Source: a bacterium (lineage in GTDB: Bacteria > Eisenbacteria > RBG-16-71-46). Taken from it: DNA of 30,675 nucleotides. Each line of letters starts with the position of its first letter. Position 1 is the stretch's first letter. This document shows, piece by piece, positions 3,464 to 10,900 of the stretch. The stretch is taken from NCBI GenBank assembly GCA_043779265.1, contig JAYWEM010000009.1:1-30675 (forward strand), in the 5' to 3' direction. The position numbers and the translations under genes were made by a program. The notes under the pieces were generated by a model. The model was not told where the DNA came from, did not search any database, and saw nothing but the letters and a program-made list of their open reading frames with translations.

Positions 3464-3545
3464 GGCGGGGACTCCCTCGGCGGGCTGGAACGGAGACGGG
3501 GCGGCGCGCCGGGGACCTCCCTGGCGTGCGCGCCCCGTCAAGACA

Positions 3546-3621
3546 TGGTGGGCGATACTGGACTTGAACCAGTGACCCCTTGCTTGTCGAGCAAGTGCTC
3601 TACCAACTGAGCTAATCGCCC
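3546..3621 (-). tRNA. tRNA-Val(GAC)
   Basis: GGGCGATTAGCTCAGTTGGTAGAGCACTTGCTCGACAAGCAAGGGGTCACTGGTTCAAGTCCAGTATCGCCCACCA: 76-nt cloverleaf, anticodon GAC, encoded CCA. Confidence 0.97.
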
Positions 3622-3683
3622 ATGAGGCCGAGCAGTGAAACGCAGGCCGTGCAGTTGGTCAAGCGGCGCGGCGTCCGTTCGAC

Positions 3684-4697
3684 TCAGACCCGGCGACCGA
3701 CGACCTCGGCGATGGTGCGGATCTGAGCAACCAGTTCGTCGAACTGCTCGGGATAGAGCGACTGCGCCCCATCCGAGAGCGCGCGATCCGGGTCGTTGTG
3801 AACCTCGATGATCAGCCCGTCGGCGCCGGCCGCGATCGAGGCTCGCGCCATCGGCGCCACCTTGTCGCGGATGCCCACGCCATGGCTCGGATCGACGATG
3901 ATCGGCAGGTGCGACAGCTCCTTCACGACCGGCACGGCGTTCAGGTCGAGCGTGTTGCGCGTGTAGGTCTCGAACGTGCGGATGCCGCGCTCACACAAGA
4001 TGACCCGCGAGTTTCCCTGCGCCATCACGTGCTCGGCCGACAGCAGCCACTCCTCGATCGTGCTCGAGAGGCCGCGCTTGAGGAGCACGGGCTTGTCGGT
4101 GTGGCCGACCTCGCGCAGCAGCGTGTAGTTCTGCATGTTGCGCGCCCCGATCTGCAGGATGTCGGCGTAGCGCGCGAGCAGGGCGACCTGCTGCGAGTCC
4201 ATCACCTCGCTCACGACGGCCAGGTCGAAGGCGTCCGCGGCGCGCCGCAGCAGTTTGAGCCCCTCCTCGCCCAGTCCCTGGAATGCGTAGGGTGAGGTGC
4301 GCGGCTTGAATGCGCCGCCTCGCATCACCGTCGCGCCCGCCTTGGCCACCGACTCGGCGATCGCGAATGCCTGCGCCTCCCCCTCGATGCTGCACGGCCC
4401 GGCCATCAGCACGATCTGGTCGCTGCCGATGTTGGCGCGGCCCACCGAGACGATGGTGTCGTGCGGGTGGAACGCCCGGCTCGCGAGCTTGAATGGACGC
4501 TTGAGTCGCTCGGAGCCATCGACGCCGTCCCACGTGGCGACCTCGTCCCAGTCGACCGCGCTGATCTCCCCGATCGCGGCGATGCGCGTGCCGGCCGGAT
4601 GATCGGTGCGGTACACGGCGAGCCCGGCCATGCGCAGACGGGACATCACGTCGCGCGTGACCGCTTCGGAGGTACCGGGTTTCAGTCGGACGAGCAC
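3684..4697 (-). CDS. aroF: 3-deoxy-7-phosphoheptulonate (DAHP) synthase, type I-beta with N-terminal regulatory domain
   Basis: [46 protein letters not shown] motifs; GGGGAG SD 6 nt before GTG 4697. Confidence 0.95.
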
Positions 4698-4711
4698 AGC
4701 GGACTCCCCAT

Positions 4712-4745
4712 ATGAGAACGGCCCATGCCATTCGGGCACGGGCCG
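4712..4745 (-). terminator. Attenuator terminator hairpin upstream of aroF
   Basis: 11-bp stem CGGCCCGTGCC-CGAAT-GGCATGGGCCG followed by TTCTCAT, between the leader ORF and the aroF SD. Confidence 0.7.
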
Positions 4746-4773
4746 AGCGATTCAGGAGGGACTGCGAGAGACC

Positions 4774-4848
4774 TCACTGGACCAGCACGGACCCCCGGCA
4801 ACGCCAGGCGCCGCCGTGCCAGTACTGATACTCGAAGTGAAGTCGCAT
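4774..4848 (-). CDS. Aromatic-rich leader peptide MRLHFEYQYWHGGAWRCRGSVLVQ (aroF attenuator)
   Basis: GGAGG SD (4855-4859) 6 nt before ATG; F, Y, Y, W, W within 11 codons; TGA 4774-4776; followed by a terminator and aroF. Confidence 0.75.
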   Translation of the reverse strand: MRLHFEYQYWHGGAWRCRGSVLVQ

Positions 4849-4884
4849 CCGAATCCTCCGAAGTGGGTGCATCGAGCGCGCGAG

Positions 4885-4914
4885 AGCCTAGCATCGGGCA
4901 CGGCATGTCGCCAA
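4885..4914 (-). promoter_or_regulatory. Putative sigma70 promoter for the aroF leader
   Basis: TTGGCG, 18 nt, TAGGCT preceded by TGc (extended -10). Confidence 0.5.
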
Positions 4915-4925
4915 CGGCGAAGGGT

Positions 4926-6260
4926 TCAGCGTGAAACGGCGAGGGTCCGGCTCAGCTGCTTCTCCCCCACCTGGAGTCTCGCCCAGTAGATCCCCGGCGC
5001 CACGGCCAGCCCGGAGTCATCGCGAAGGTCCCACAAGCGGGCGTGCTCGCCGGCTCCGACCTCGCCATCGGCCAACGTCCGGATGCGCGCGCCTCGCACA
5101 TCGTGGAGCTCGAGCCGGACGTGCGAGGTGGTGGGCAGTGTGAACCGCAGCGTCGTCGCGGTGCGCGCGGGACTCGGCGAGGCGGGTGCCAGAGCGAGCG
5201 TGCGCGGTCCGCCGTCGGACACATCCGCGAGCGCGCTCGGCGCCAGCAGGAACGGGCGCTGCTCACCGTTCGGGGCGATGCCCTCGCCGACGATCACGCC
5301 ATTGCCGTCGATGTCCCAGGCCCGGTAGAGATTCCAGCCGCTACCGGCGGAGACGAGTGAGTTGAGATCCATCAGTTGGTTCTGCCGCCACAGGATGGCG
5401 GCCATCGAACCATCGGCGCGCGTGCTCGCACCCACCACGTCGCCCGCATCGTTGAGACCGAACGCGGCGCTGTACATGCCGCCCAGCGTGCCGATCGACT
5501 TGAGTACGCCGTTCGTCCACAGGAAACCGCGGCTCTCCGCCGTGAGCAGCGAGATCTGCGACCAGCCGCACACCTGCGTCGAGAGGTTCACGTCGTGCGC
5601 GTAACTCGTGTAGCCGCCCAGCGTGCCGAGATCGACGAGCGGGCTGCCGGGCTTGGCGAGGAAGGCGTGGAAGCGATCGTTCTGCGGCGTCGCCGCCATG
5701 CCGACGATGTCGCCCCAGTCGTTGATCGCGTTGGCCCTCGATTGCGAACCGCCGAGCGTCCCCAGGTCCTGCAGCGCTCCACTGCTCCAGAAGAACGCGC
5801 GCTCTCGTCCGAGCGAGTCGAACGCCGAGCCGACGACGGTGCCGGTCGCGTTGATGTCGTTCGCGTCACTGCGAGCACCGCCGAAGCTACCGAGGTCGCT
5901 CATCTGACCATTGCGCCAGAGGAAAGCGCGCGGTGTGGTCTCGCCGCTGCGATAGGCCCATCCGACCACGTCGCCATGTCGATTGATGGCGCGCGCCAGA
6001 CTCTGCGAGCCGCCCAGCGTGCCGAGGTCGATGACCGTGCCGGTGCGATTGAGCATCGCGTGCACGAGTCCGCCCGGTACGAAGGAGTAGCCGACGCTCT
6101 CGCCCTGCCCATTGAGCGCGACCGCACCCGAGCCCGGCAGGCCGCCGAGGCTGCCGAGATCGACGATCTGGTACAGCGAGGCCCTGGCTGGAGACGGAGC
6201 CGCGGCAAGCGACAGTGCCAACAGCACAGTCGAGCCGGCACGGGCGAGCCGATGGCGCAT
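4926..6260 (-). CDS. Secreted HAF-repeat beta-propeller protein with C-terminal FlgD-Ig/T9SS-like domain
   Basis: Signal peptide; 7 repeats DLGTLGGxxSxAxAINxxGxVVG; C-terminal PSP...LHDVRGARIRTL...WDLRDDSG...PGIYW; SD GAGGAGG. Confidence 0.85.
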   Translation of the reverse strand: MRHRLARAGSTVLLALSLAAAPSPARASLYQIVDLGSLGGLPGSGAVALNGQGESVGYSFVPGGLVHAMLNRTGTVIDLGTLGGSQSLARAINRHGDVVGWAYRSGETTPRAFLWRNGQMSDLGSFGGARSDANDINATGTVVGSAFDSLGRERAFFWSSGALQDLGTLGGSQSRANAINDWGDIVGMAATPQNDRFHAFLAKPGSPLVDLGTLGGYTSYAHDVNLSTQVCGWSQISLLTAESRGFLWTNGVLKSIGTLGGMYSAAFGLNDAGDVVGASTRADGSMAAILWRQNQLMDLNSLVSAGSGWNLYRAWDIDGNGVIVGEGIAPNGEQRPFLLAPSALADVSDGGPRTLALAPASPSPARTATTLRFTLPTTSHVRLELHDVRGARIRTLADGEVGAGEHARLWDLRDDSGLAVAPGIYWARLQVGEKQLSRTLAVSR

Positions 6261-6349
6261 GCAGATCCTCCTCTTCAAGGAATCGATGGGCGGGCGGCCG
6301 CCGCTCGGGGCACGACGAGCCTACTCCTCGCCCCGCTTGGGCGGTAGCC

Positions 6350-7411
6350 CTACCGATCGCGGCCGCGAAGCGCCCGTTGATGCAGCCAGGCGTCCATCAG
6401 GGTCAGCGCCAGCATCGCCTCGGCCACCGGCACGACGCGCGGGCAGATGCACGGGTCGTGGCGACCCTCGATCGCCACGGTCTCGGTGCCGCCGCCGACG
6501 CGGGCCATGGTCTGGGGCTTGCCGATGCTGGTCGCCGGGCGCACCGCGACGCGAACCACGACCTCGGCCCCGTTCGAGATGCCGCCTGAGATGCCGCCCG
6601 CGAAGTTGGTCACGTGCCGCTCGCCGTCGAAGACGTCGTTGGTCTCCGAGCCATGGCGCGTGCACATCGAGAACCCGCCGCCGATCTCGACGCCCTTGGT
6701 CGCAGGGATCGAGAGCATCGCGGCGCCGAGCATGGCATCGAGCTTGGCCATCGTCGGATCGCCCCATCCCGCCGGAACCCCCATGGCCGCCACCTCCACC
6801 ACGCCGCCGATCGAGTCCTTGGCGTCACGTACCGCTGCGATGCGCGCTTCCATCTGGGTCGCCGCGGCAGCGTCGGGGCAGCGCACCGGATTGCGCTCGA
6901 CCTGATCCCAGTCGCGGACCGATGTCGCGAGATCGCCCACCTGCACCGTGCCGCCCACGATCCGGACGCCGATCGTGGCGAGCGCCGACCGAGCCACCGC
7001 ACCTGCGGCGACGCGGCCCAGCGTCTCGCGCCCGCTGCTGCGGCCGCCGCCTCGATGATCCCGCACGCCGTACTTCTCGTGATAGGCGTGATCGGCGTGG
7101 CCGGGCCGGAACACCTGCTTGAGCGCGTCATAGTCCTTGGAGCGCGAATCGGTATTGCGGACCAGCATGGCGATCGGGGACCCGAGCGTGACGCCTTCGA
7201 ACACACCCGAGAGGATCTCGACCTTATCGGCCTCCTGGCGCTGCGTCGTGATCGCGCTCTGCCCGGGCCGCCGCCGATCGAGTTCTCGCTGGATCGCGGC
7301 CGGATCGATCTGGAAGCCGGGCGGCATGCCATCGATGACGACGCCCACACCCGGCCCGTGCGACTCGCCGAACGTGGTGATGCGGAGCAGGTGGCCGAAC
7401 GTCGAACTCAC
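6350..7411 (-). CDS. aroC: Chorismate synthase
   Basis: TTFGESHG, RRRPGQS, FRPGHAD, RGGGRSSGRET, GGISGGISNG, GRHDPCI motifs. Confidence 0.97.
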   Translation of the reverse strand: MSSTFGHLLRITTFGESHGPGVGVVIDGMPPGFQIDPAAIQRELDRRRPGQSAITTQRQEADKVEILSGVFEGVTLGSPIAMLVRNTDSRSKDYDALKQVFRPGHADHAYHEKYGVRDHRGGGRSSGRETLGRVAAGAVARSALATIGVRIVGGTVQVGDLATSVRDWDQVERNPVRCPDAAAATQMEARIAAVRDAKDSIGGVVEVAAMGVPAGWGDPTMAKLDAMLGAAMLSIPATKGVEIGGGFSMCTRHGSETNDVFDGERHVTNFAGGISGGISNGAEVVVRVAVRPATSIGKPQTMARVGGGTETVAIEGRHDPCICPRVVPVAEAMLALTLMDAWLHQRALRGRDR

Positions 7412-7908
7412 CGCCGCCGCTCGCCCGGCTTGCGCCTCGTGGCGCCCTTCGCGGCCGTCTTCGGTCGTCGGCGAACGCTCGGCACCGCGGACTTCTTCCG
7501 ACTCTTCGCGAACTCCGCATTGGCGCTGATGCGGAACGCCAAGTGGCCCTTCACCATGCGCTCGAACTGATAGAGGTAGGTGACCCGGATGTCAGCACGC
7601 GCCTCGGCGATCCACGACTCGCAGCGCGACCAGGTGACCACATCCTCGCCCGTGTGATCGAAGAACAACTCCTCATGCAGCACGCCGCGATTGACCAGCG
7701 TGCCGACCATCTCCCAGTACGAGATCGTCATGCGGAACCAACGGTCCTCCATCGAGTGCGACAGGTAGCGCGTCTTGATCTCGTTCCAACTCGCCGGCTT
7801 GAACTCGGTCAGGAACCACTGGCGCGCGCGGCGCAGCTCAGGTTCTCGGCGCATCTCGTAGAGCTGCAGCAGCAACTGCGCATCGGCATGCGTCGGCTTG
7901 CGGGCCAT
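7408..7908 (-). CDS. Hypothetical protein (DUF4760-like) with basic C-terminal tail
   Basis: DAQLLLQLYEMRREPELRRARQWF...SYWEMVGTLVNRG; GGAAGGGG SD; GTGA overlap with aroC. Confidence 0.65.
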   Translation of the reverse strand: MARKPTHADAQLLLQLYEMRREPELRRARQWFLTEFKPASWNEIKTRYLSHSMEDRWFRMTISYWEMVGTLVNRGVLHEELFFDHTGEDVVTWSRCESWIAEARADIRVTYLYQFERMVKGHLAFRISANAEFAKSRKKSAVPSVRRRPKTAAKGATRRKPGERRR

Positions 7909-7910
7909 CG

Positions 7911-10900
7911 TCAGTTCCCCTTCCACTCGGGCATCCGGCCCGGGGTCCACGGCGCGCCGGCCGCTTCGGCGCGACGTTCCAGCTCAGCCACATCGCGCAT
8001 CAGCGTGCGCAGCATCTCGATCTCGCGGGTCAGGTCGCCCGAGGCGATCTCGGCGTTCCGCCGATGCGTCGCCGTCGGCGCGCTCGTCGAACTCCAGCTT
8101 CCATAGACGACCTGGTTCACGCGATCCATCAGCGAGGGGGGCACCGCTTCATTGCGACGGGCCAGGGCCTCGTCGCCGTTCAGCCGGATCGAGATCTCCT
8201 GGCAGCGGCGCTCGAGCGACAGAGCCTCCTGGCGCATCTCGACCGTGGCCCTTGGTGCATCATGCAGCGCGGTCTTCAGATGGAGCGAGCGGTTCGAGGC
8301 CTCGCCCAGCGTGCGCGTGGCGCCGAGCGCGGAGCGCTGCAGACTTGCCACCTGTGCATGGAACGCGACCAGCGCCGGCCGGTCGGCGGCGGGCAGCGTC
8401 GTATTGTGGAGCGGCACGCACTCGAAGGCCACGAGCTCGGTGAGCGTCGTCGTGACGCCGTCGATCCGTTCGGAGAGTTGCACGAAGTAGCGGCCCGGCA
8501 TCACCAACGGCCCGGTCGATTCCGACCCGAAGTCCGACCGGGTTCTGCCACCCGGCTGCGCGGGCTCGCTCGAGGGCGAGCGGAAGTCCCACGCGACACG
8601 CTGGAAACCCGCATCCGTGGGTCCCGTCAGCCGGCGCACCACCTGGCCCTGCGCGTCCGTCACCGTCAGCACGATGGCAGCGGCCTCCTCGCGATCCTCG
8701 GCGCGGATGGCGTCCCAAGTCGGGTAGGGGCTGCCCTCACCCGCCTTGCGCTGCTCCTTCTCGCGCTCGCGCCTCGTGTCACGGAGGCTCTTGCGGTCGG
8801 ACTTCAGGTGATAGGTGAAGATGGCGCCGAAGGGCGGGTTCTCGGCGAAGTAGTGCATCTCCCCCTGCGAGGCGCGTCCGTCGCCGCCGAGCGGCGAGGC
8901 CGGCACGTACATCAGGGCCGGCTTGACCGGGAACAGCGTCGCCTTCTGCTCGAGCGTCGCGAGCGACGCCGAACGAAGCGGCGAGTAGTCATCGAGGATG
9001 TAGAATCCTCGGCTGAACGAGCCCACCACGAGATCGTTCTCCCGCTTCTGGATCGCGAGGTCTCGCACGCACTGGACCGGCAGGCCACCCTTGAGCGCGA
9101 ACCAGTTCCTGCCGCCGTCCTTGGTGCAGAACACGCCGAACTCGGTTCCTGCGAACAGCAGGTCGGGATCGACGTGGTCCTCGACGAGCGCGTAGACGGA
9201 TCCGTTGTCAGGGAGTCCGGTCGTGATGGCACGCCAGGTGCGCCCAAGGTCATCGCTGCGATGGATGTACGGCTTGTAGTCGCCCATCTTGTGGCGATCG
9301 AACGCGGCGTAGAGGCGCGAGCGCGAGTGCTGCGACGCCAGCACACGTGAGACGTACGACCACTCGCCGACGAGCGGCGTGGAGTCGTAGCGCCGCCACG
9401 CAGCGCCGCTGTTCTCACTGATCTGGATGAGGCCGTCGTCGGTCCCCACCACGAGCAGACCCTCGACCAGCGGCGACTCATCGAGCGAGACGATGTTGCC
9501 GTAGTTGGACGTGCTCGCGTTCTTGGACACCGCGTCGATGCTCCAGATCCGGCCCATCACGGGCAGCTGATTGCGATCGACCTGCCGCGTCAGGTCGGGG
9601 CTCACGGCGCGCCAGGCATCGCCCCGGTCATCGCTTCGATAAAGGCGCTGCGAGGCGAAGTACAGTCGCGACGAAGCGTGCGGCGAGATGTTGAGCGGGC
9701 TGTCCCAGTTCCAGCGCGACGGCGCCTCGCCGGGCTCGATCTGCGGTTGGATGTCCACCGCCTCGCCGCTCTTGCGATCGAAGCGGACGATGCCGGCGTG
9801 CTGGTACTGACCGTAGACGATGTTGGGATCGGTCGGATCGACGCGCGGCTGGAAGCCGTCGCCGCCCAACACGATGAACCAGTCGCTCGAGCGGATGCCG
9901 TTGTCGTTGAGCGTGCGCGAGGGCCCGCCCTGGGTGTTGTTGTCCTGCGTGCCGCCGTAGACGTTGTAGAACGGCAGCGCCTCATCGAGCGCGAGCTTGT
10001 AGAACTGCGTGATGGGCAGGTTCGTGAAGTACTTCCACGTCTCGCCGCGATCGAAGGATTCGTACAAGCCACCGTCGCCGCCGACCAGCAGGTGCTCGCT
10101 GTCGCTCGGGTCGATCCACACCAGATGATCGTCCACGTGGCGCGCGCGATTACTCACGCGCCGCCAGGTGCGGCCGCCGTCATCGCTGGTCTGCAGGAAC
10201 GTGTCGATCGAATAGAGCCGATCGGGGATCGACGGGTCGCTGAACAGCTCCTGGTAGTACTGCGGGCTCGAGGAGATGCGGCCGTTCAGCTTCTCCCAGT
10301 TCATCCCGCCATCACCCGAGCGATAGGTGCCCGAGGCCTCGTGCTGGGCCTCGATGGTGGCGGTGATCACGTTCGCGTCGTGCGGCGAGACGGTCATGCC
10401 GATGCGGCCCATGTCGCCCGAGGGCAGGCCGTTCTTGAGCTTCGTCCAGGACTCGCCGCCATCGGCGCTCTTCCAGATGCCGCTGCCCGGACCGCCGTTG
10501 AGGAGCGTCCACACCTTGCGGTGCCGCTGATAGGTGGTCGCGTAGAGCACGTCGGGATTGCGCGGATCGAAGTGGACCTCGTTGGCGCCGGTCCACTCAT
10601 CGACGTTCAGCACCTTGCGCCACGTCTTGCCGCCATCGCTCGTCTTGTAGACCCCGCGATCGCCGCCCGCACTCCACAGCGGACCGAACGCGGCGACGAA
10701 CACGGTCTTCGAGTCCTTCGGGTGGACGCGCACCATGCCGATGCTGCCCGACTCCTTGAGACCGAGATTCGTCCAGTTCTTCCCGCCATCCTCGGAGCGA
10801 TACACGCCGTCGCCCCACCCGACCGAGCGCTGGCTGTTGTTCTCCCCCGATCCGACCCACACCGTGATGGGGTTCTGCGGGTCGAGCGTGACGCAGCCGA

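Follow-up and report, generated by a model that had tools for sequence, protein, structure and literature searches.

A predicted leader-peptide attenuator upstream of aroF in Candidatus Eisenbacteria

Overall architecture of the aroF leader

In the 30,675-nucleotide stretch of Candidatus Eisenbacteria DNA that we analyzed (the window), the DAHP synthase gene aroF is preceded by a leader that, as modeled here, is most likely a classical ribosome-mediated transcription attenuator of the trpL type. The leader is real and conserved and very probably functional, and the attenuator assignment is well supported by its conservation, reading frame, spacing, helix pairing, and behavior in a simulation of ribosome stalling. 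Taken broadly, as an intrinsic attenuator of some kind that is read by the ribosome, the model is one that we hold with high confidence; in its more specific form, which we favor with some reservation, the predicted attenuator responds mainly to low Trp-tRNA and, in this genome, to low Tyr-tRNA. Among its sequence features are a Shine-Dalgarno (SD)-led leader ORF between promoter and gene and an in-frame enrichment of Trp and Tyr codons, and by prediction it also has mutually exclusive antiterminator and terminator helices, with the codons at positions where a stalled ribosome would release the antiterminator. It provides a first concrete, testable regulatory element for this little-studied lineage.

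In the proposed mechanism, transcription would start near 4878, the predicted start site. When charged tRNA is ample, the ribosome would pass codon 17 and run to the stop codon, where it would cover segment 2; with segment 2 covered, the hairpin at 4745–4719 would form and transcription would end near 4712. If the ribosome stalls at Y7, Y9, W10, or W15, segment 2 would remain available and could pair with the base of the terminator arm while the partner of that arm has yet to be made, and aroF would then be transcribed. A stall at F5 is predicted to act in the same direction with the weakest effect, and is probably incidental.

All parts of the leader lie on the minus strand. A promoter-like site of the sigma-70 type (4885–4914) combines TTGGCG (4914–4909) with, at a spacing of 18 nt, an extended TG element, TG-n-TAGGCT (4893–4885). 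The family form of this promoter is TTGACC-17/18-TGnTAGGCT, and a counterpart is found 5′ of nearly all of the relatives' leaders; the site is an addition to the elements listed in the first-pass annotation. A consensus promoter/terminator scan listed neither the promoter-like site nor the terminator-like hairpin: its thresholds are too strict for this site, and its simple terminator rule demands 5 T in 8 nt. The leader SD, GGAGG (4855–4859), stands 6 nt before an ATG at 4848 that opens an ORF of 24 codons, MRLHFEYQYWHGGAWRCRGSVLVQ* (4774–4848, stop codon 4776–4774), and this ORF contains the aromatic codons F5, Y7, Y9, W10, and W15. The first-pass annotation had described this arrangement from the DNA, and our check of the sequence found it correct to the base, as it did the 11-bp hairpin, its TTCTCAT tail, and the two arms proposed for a 1:2 helix.

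Segment 1 (codons 9–14, 4809–4823) forms the 5′ arm of a predicted protector hairpin in both minimum-free-energy and nascent folds, the arms of which, ACTGGCACGG (4823–4814) and CCGTGCTGGT (4790–4781), are in place; GGCAC within segment 1 is also predicted to be able to pair with the terminator arm. Segment 2 (4772–4799) contains GCCGGG (4799–4794), which is the pairing register of the family, and GGGTCCG...GAGG (4794–4772), which is the register favored here. Segment 3 (4740–4760) is predicted to pair with segment 2 and overlaps the base of the terminator 5′ arm. The terminator-like hairpin (4719–4745) has 11 bp with one G-U pair and a predicted energy of −22.4 kcal/mol, begins 28 nt past the leader stop codon, and is followed by an interrupted U tail, TTCTCATAT (4710–4718, in which TTCTCAT occupies 4718–4712). 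This tail has 5 T in 9 nt, against a family mean of 5.6 T in 9 nt, and clear U runs close the leaders of other families; 80 hairpins that follow stop codons elsewhere in this genome have a mean of 3.0 T and similarly interrupted tails. Rho is present in the genome. The hairpin ends 21 nt before the aroF start (17–79 nt in the relatives listed), and the aroF SD, GGGGAG (4704–4709), lies outside it, a distance that led us to reject translational attenuation by sequestration of the ribosome-binding site.

As a whole, the 181-nt leader folds more stably than its shuffled versions (z = −2.69, with 0 of 200 shuffles as good). Genome-wide, there are 3960 SD-led ORFs of 12–34 codons, 13 with at least five aromatic codons including at least two Trp and 14 with a terminator-like hairpin behind them; only this leader is both aromatic-rich and terminator-linked, where about 0.05 would be expected. 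Within its limits, the same scan found no second leader-peptide attenuator (his, thr, ilv, leu) in the genome. An Rfam scan of 3500–5200 returned only a tRNA and two chance matches, so that the leader matches none of the families for Trp or Phe leaders, T-boxes, or riboswitches. Four RNA runs (4–5% of words) cover only tRNA and conserved pieces of aroF from other organisms, with none at 4673–5000, and are uninformative on the leader.

Predicted effect of ribosome stalling

For the stall scan, the nascent RNA was folded from 12 nt past the A-site codon to the end of the terminator 5′ arm, and the energy holding that arm was scored. Control scans of two E. coli leaders peaked on W10–R12 for trpL and on the stretch from the later Phe codons to T13 for pheL. 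For the window leader, predicted arm-holding was −5.8 kcal/mol for a stall at F5, −8.8 at Y7, −8.3 at Y9, −9.0 at W10, and −11.8 at W15, compared to baselines of −2.5 at the stop codon and −3.9 with no ribosome; F5 is the weakest predicted stall site among its aromatic codons. The pairing of GGCAC in the W10–G12 codons with GTGCC of the terminator arm, which had been proposed as an additional contact, was recovered in the nascent folds and aids the predicted effect of a stall at F5. All 54 distinct leaders analyzed have a stall window in which arm-holding is at least 3 kcal/mol above the stop state, with means of −11.1 kcal/mol at the best position, −2.2 at the stop, and −3.5 with no ribosome. 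A Trp codon falls inside this window in 47 of them, a Tyr codon in 34, and a Phe codon in 19; all three are inside it in 11, and Trp alone in 10.

Folding at equilibrium gives a different picture: wherever the ribosome stalls on the window leader, the complete terminator prevails (P at least 0.98), and trpL behaves alike (at least 0.97), while pheL and two relatives' leaders (L016 and L043) switch even at equilibrium. Because the full terminator wins at every stall position at equilibrium, the predicted switch must be kinetic, and we rejected equilibrium folding as a switch test, as it is uninformative both for this genome and for trpL.

Conservation of the leader and its helices

Relatives were gathered with the AroF protein as query, and the upstream DNA of 68 genomes of the same family (f1) was inspected. 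The layout of promoter, upstream ORF (uORF), competing helix, and terminator precedes aroF in 50 of the 68 loci (25 of 36 in a first set, 25 of 32 in a second), and also in 3 of 3 genomes of family f2, 3 of 9 assessable genomes of family f3, and 2 of 7 genomes in other orders of the class, one of these weak. After 10 duplicates and one locus with a hairpin but no uORF (L057) were dropped, 54 distinct leaders remained, with the start codon chosen by hand in four cases (L011, L013, L022, and L048). The homologous ORFs in these leaders bear out the suggestion that aromatic-rich uORFs would be found upstream of aroF orthologs. The leader is missing from 18 family loci, 17 of which have aroC directly upstream and one (L020) another gene inserted. 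Relocation of the leader to the start of the aroC operon in such loci was considered and rejected, as the terminator motif occurs in 0 of 17 leaderless loci scanned, six of them with 4–10 kb of sequence.

When the GTDB species collection was scanned for an exact pattern, 40 sites matched, and 31 of them have aroF directly downstream; 22 of these 31 are titled Ca. Eisenbacteria and 3 carry the names of other taxa. The leader is present in genomes titled Polyangiaceae, Verrucomicrobiia, and Methylomirabilota (L085, L106, and L107), whose AroF proteins are 78–81% identical to that of the window; mislabeled or mixed bins seem a likelier explanation than transfer. No Trp-rich uORF was found ahead of a second trp/DAHP cluster in two further loci, L174 and L175, the latter with incomplete sequence.

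The helices are preserved to different degrees. Over 46 aligned leaders, 21 of which were found via a pattern containing parts of the helices and all of which also served to draw the structures, pairing reaches 98% in the terminator, 83.8% in the antiterminator, and 81.8% in the inner protector (1:2), compared to 31–59% for slid partners. Compensatory changes are few and most helix positions are invariant, although segments 2, 3, and 4 change together in two single sequences, L028 and L022; slid controls of the antiterminator show as many both-sided changes (6 pairs for a slide of +1), and RNAalifold returned the terminator only.

The 2:3 helix was first read as GCCGGG (4799–4794) with CTCGGC (4747–4742). 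These letters are present and form the register of most of the family; in this genome, however, that register is predicted to be 6.3 kcal/mol weaker than one shifted by about 6 nt, and has P ~0 in the ensemble. The shifted register pairs GGGTCCG (4794–4788) with CGGCCC (4745–4740) and extends to a long imperfect hairpin (4794–4772 with 4759–4740). It is predicted in a sister genome (L036) as well, and it brings W15 inside the stall window.

Control codons

The leader ORFs are 21–33 codons long, and the spacing from stop codon to hairpin is 20–28 nt in all 54. Over their 1340 codons, the frequencies of Trp (0.119), Tyr (0.056), and Phe (0.040) compare with 0.027, 0.010, and 0.018 in shuffles, with 0.022, 0.000, and 0.012 in the other two frames, and with about 0.016, 0.019, and 0.033 in the long ORFs of the genome. 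Trp is thus 4.4-fold, Tyr 5.5-fold, and Phe 2.2-fold above shuffles, with Phe near the level of the proteome. Tyr is encoded by both TAC (50) and TAT (25), and 58 of these codons lie inside the stall window and 17 outside. Part of the codon bias is driven by the RNA, as in most of the family the last W-R-G-R(-E) codons are segment 2 itself; since its codon forms part of this segment, that Trp is structural and lies outside the stall window.

Every one of the 54 leaders has a Trp codon, 40 have Tyr, 33 have Phe, and 25 have all three. In the 25 family leaders that were found by protein alone, with no DNA pattern, the corresponding counts are 25, 18, 11, and 7. A Trp codon is present in 57 of 58 control regions. 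The first-pass annotation had read the leader as a sensor of Phe, Tyr, and Trp together. The conservation of the aromatic codons bears this proposal out only in part: Trp is universal and Tyr common, and Phe, in 33 of 54 leaders, is close to its proteome level. Three-way integration is not a rule of the family, in which Trp would be the core input and Tyr a frequent second, and a Phe input in this genome is doubtful.

Pathway enzymes and codon content

The genome, which is 92% complete, carries trpA, trpE, and a chorismate mutase-TyrA fusion. trpE (L173, G000:C148:594-2129) has its start inside the 3′ end of the preceding ORF and lacks a leader, and no member of the TrpR family was found in the assembly at this completeness. 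The fusion (L172, G000:C175:12266-13381) lies directly behind a gene of the cystathionine/methionine lyase family. An initial view of the genome as lacking TyrA was rejected on account of this diverged protein, which the PDH_C profile matched weakly once and missed once; because the profile missed it, "TyrA not found" is an unsure label in other genomes too. Of 82 genomes of the order, only 10, among them this one, have a strong-scoring fusion of this type, and the sister genome G001 does not. Prephenate dehydratase (PDT) was not found by profile or by tblastn, and as the genome is 92% complete its gene may be unassembled. Phenylalanine hydroxylase was considered as a source of Tyr and rejected, as it was found neither here nor in 36 family genomes.

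Among the family genomes sampled, 34 of 36 yielded trpA, 42 of 70 the TyrA C-terminal domain (by a search that misses diverged forms), and 16 of 70 PDT, the same order of frequency as the leader codons. Most f1 genomes have no detectable PDT, and many have TyrA with no match to an AroQ-type chorismate mutase; Phe auxotrophy or an unrecognized enzyme is a possible explanation. Among 58 leader genomes, Tyr codons are present in 37 of 43 with TyrA vs 5 of 15 without (Fisher p = 0.0002), and in 27 of 32 vs 3 of 8 when completeness is at least 90%. Phe codons are present in 12 of 17 genomes with PDT vs 10 of 41 without (p = 0.002) when counted in the control region, which was defined after seeing the data, and in 14 of 17 vs 22 of 41 (p = 0.07) when counted in the whole peptide. 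A cross-control of PDT vs Tyr codons is also significant at a completeness of at least 90% (p = 0.007). After correction for kinship using 7–8 independent pairs on the AroF tree, 3.6 pairs go the same way for Tyr and 0.2 against (median p 0.25), and for Phe and PDT 1.4 go the same way and 0.4 against, of 8. Because the direction is right but not significant once kinship is corrected for, we treat the tracking of codons with enzymes as a lead and not as a result.

Alternative explanations

The evidence for a response mainly to Trp and Tyr has to be weighed against other uses of the same leader. That a single attenuator reads all three aromatic amino acids in this genome, F5 included, is in our view unlikely. 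F5 does sit on the plateau of the stall scan (−5.8 kcal/mol vs −2.5 at the stop), aided by the GGCAC/GTGCC pairing, and the 2.2-fold excess of Phe over shuffles, the 25 of 54 leaders with all three codons, and the control-region Phe codons of PDT-positive genomes (12 of 17 vs 10 of 41) all point in this direction. Yet PDT was not found here by profile or tblastn, the Phe frequency is close to that of the proteome, the control regions of two sister genomes have no Phe, and the link between Phe and PDT depends on the post hoc control region (p = 0.07 for the whole peptide) and vanishes in independent pairs. The opposite simplification, an attenuator of Trp only in which the Tyr and Phe codons are by-products of RNA helices or drift, we judge improbable. 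Tyr codons are 5.5-fold above shuffles, nearly absent from the other frames, drawn from both TAC and TAT, and concentrated in the stall window; moreover, Y7 and Y9 occur in this leader, with TyrA found, and both are missing from two sister genomes (82% and 58% complete) that have Trp-only control regions and in which no TyrA was found. What speaks for Trp alone is that its codon is the only universal one, that Trp is the sole aromatic residue coded inside the stall window of 10 of the 54 leaders, that in the G-Y-A stretch of the family the TAC/TTC codon takes part in protector pairing, and that trpE here lacks a leader.

Two further explanations concern the mechanism. The leader could act via Rho or via arrest by the nascent peptide, whether through tnaC-like sensing of free amino acids or through an R-x-R stall, and the weak U tail, the presence of Rho, and an R-x-R at both positions in 43 of 46 aligned leaders are consistent with such a mode. 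The peptide, however, is not conserved outside of its W/Y codons and the codons of segment 2, and the R-G-R is conserved because the paired RNA letters encode it; pairing in the hairpin is 98% and its tail averages 5.6 T in 9 nt, the U runs of other families are plain, and the other post-stop hairpins of this genome have similarly interrupted tails, all of which makes this mode very improbable. Finally, a leader that has decayed or become constitutive here, leaving a fixed partial terminator that merely damps aroF, is one to which we give hardly any weight. The weakened family antiterminator register, the victory of the terminator at equilibrium, and the loss of the leader from 18 of 68 family loci would fit such decay, but a shifted register of similar strength is predicted both here and in the sister L036, and this leader has kept its SD, its reading frame, the spacing of its stop codon, and five aromatic codons.

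Returning to the favored attenuator, with Trp as its main input and Tyr as the second in this genome, we offer tentatively a broader interpretation that is plausible, though the chances lie somewhat against it. The aroF leader of Eisenbacteria may be an evolvable sensor whose codons are retuned to the aromatic branches that each genome keeps: Trp always, Tyr with TyrA, and Phe with PDT. In this genome the Tyr codons might have entered together with the uncommon chorismate mutase-TyrA fusion that its sisters lack, and the leader could be the organism's only leader-peptide attenuator, with Trp control moved from the trp genes to the entry of the pathway. The roughly 60 natural variants, which differ in their Trp, Tyr, and Phe codons and in their branch enzymes, make it possible to examine directly how inputs to an attenuator are gained or lost.

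Relation to known attenuators

Multi-amino-acid sensing is not new in principle, as the single leaders thrL and ilvL of E. coli each read several end products of a branched pathway, although the amino acids there are other than those here. The E. coli trpL and pheL leaders share with the aroF leader a uORF, a protector, an antiterminator, and a terminator, with control codons where a stall frees the antiterminator (PMC11802643). They differ in that they control terminal branches and read one amino acid; the aroF leader has its segment 2 within the ORF and an interrupted U tail, and is directed at the first common step.

Attenuation at aroF, a gene that the first-pass annotation described as usually controlled by TyrR or allostery, has precedents. 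In Corynebacterium glutamicum, the aroR leader before aroF has the codons Phe-Tyr-Phe and is reported to respond to Phe and not to Tyr (PMC11802643, PMC4046766). The likeness lies in an aromatic-codon leader peptide upstream of a DAHP synthase gene, where stalling raises transcription; the difference lies in the codons, which here are F5, Y7, Y9, W10, and W15 in a family dominated by Trp, and in the phylum. Because the C. glutamicum leader has a Tyr codon yet no reported Tyr response, codon content alone is not decisive. In Acholeplasma, the uORFC-13-1 motif is a predicted combination of uORF and intrinsic terminator that occurs nowhere but upstream of aroF and comes with a promoter and a ribosome-binding site (PMC8632094). 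It resembles our leader in having a uORF and terminator before aroF and departs from it, as described, in containing Phe codon(s) only, in being a prediction and not an experiment, and in belonging to an unrelated phylum. In Thermus and Vibrio, too, DAHP synthase operons are listed as having predicted attenuators in front of them (PMC1173090), and a wider survey (Lopatovskaya et al. 2010, as cited in PMC4833913) may hold further cases. Within the open-access literature, we found no report of attenuation in Ca. Eisenbacteria. As both the mechanism and the aroF target have precedents, the surprise is modest.

aroF and neighboring genes

The aroF gene (3684–4697, minus strand, GTG start at 4697) encodes a class I-beta DAHP synthase of 337 amino acids that matches NCBIfam PRK08673 with 471 bits against a cut-off of 335, which confirms the position proposed for the leader directly upstream of aroF. 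It is the sole DAHP synthase copy found in the genome assembly. Its N-terminal extension (residues 1–65) aligns with the N-terminal domain of PDB 1RZM, and position 29 is Tyr in the window protein and His in most family members. This domain presumably mediates feedback by Tyr and Phe on the enzyme, an assumption that was not used as evidence. In two few-contig assemblies the aroF matches are split across frames (G014:C7:126129-127140 and G015:C1 near 3496576), probably through sequencing errors.

Between aroC and the aroF promoter, the window contains a minus-strand gene (4926–6278) for a protein with HAF repeats and a C-terminal FlgD Ig-like domain; in many relatives, aroC or the end of another gene lies directly before the aroF promoter. 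Directly 5′ of aroC is a gene for a DUF4760 protein (7408–7950, minus strand), and a similar-looking gene end precedes aroC in several relatives. A tRNA-Val(GAC) gene (3546–3663, minus strand) with its own promoter-like site, TTGACC-17-TTCACT, lies behind aroF and is followed by thrS. As only 6 of 29 family loci have a tRNA in the 500 nt that follow aroF, the attenuator probably has no control over tRNA-Val(GAC).
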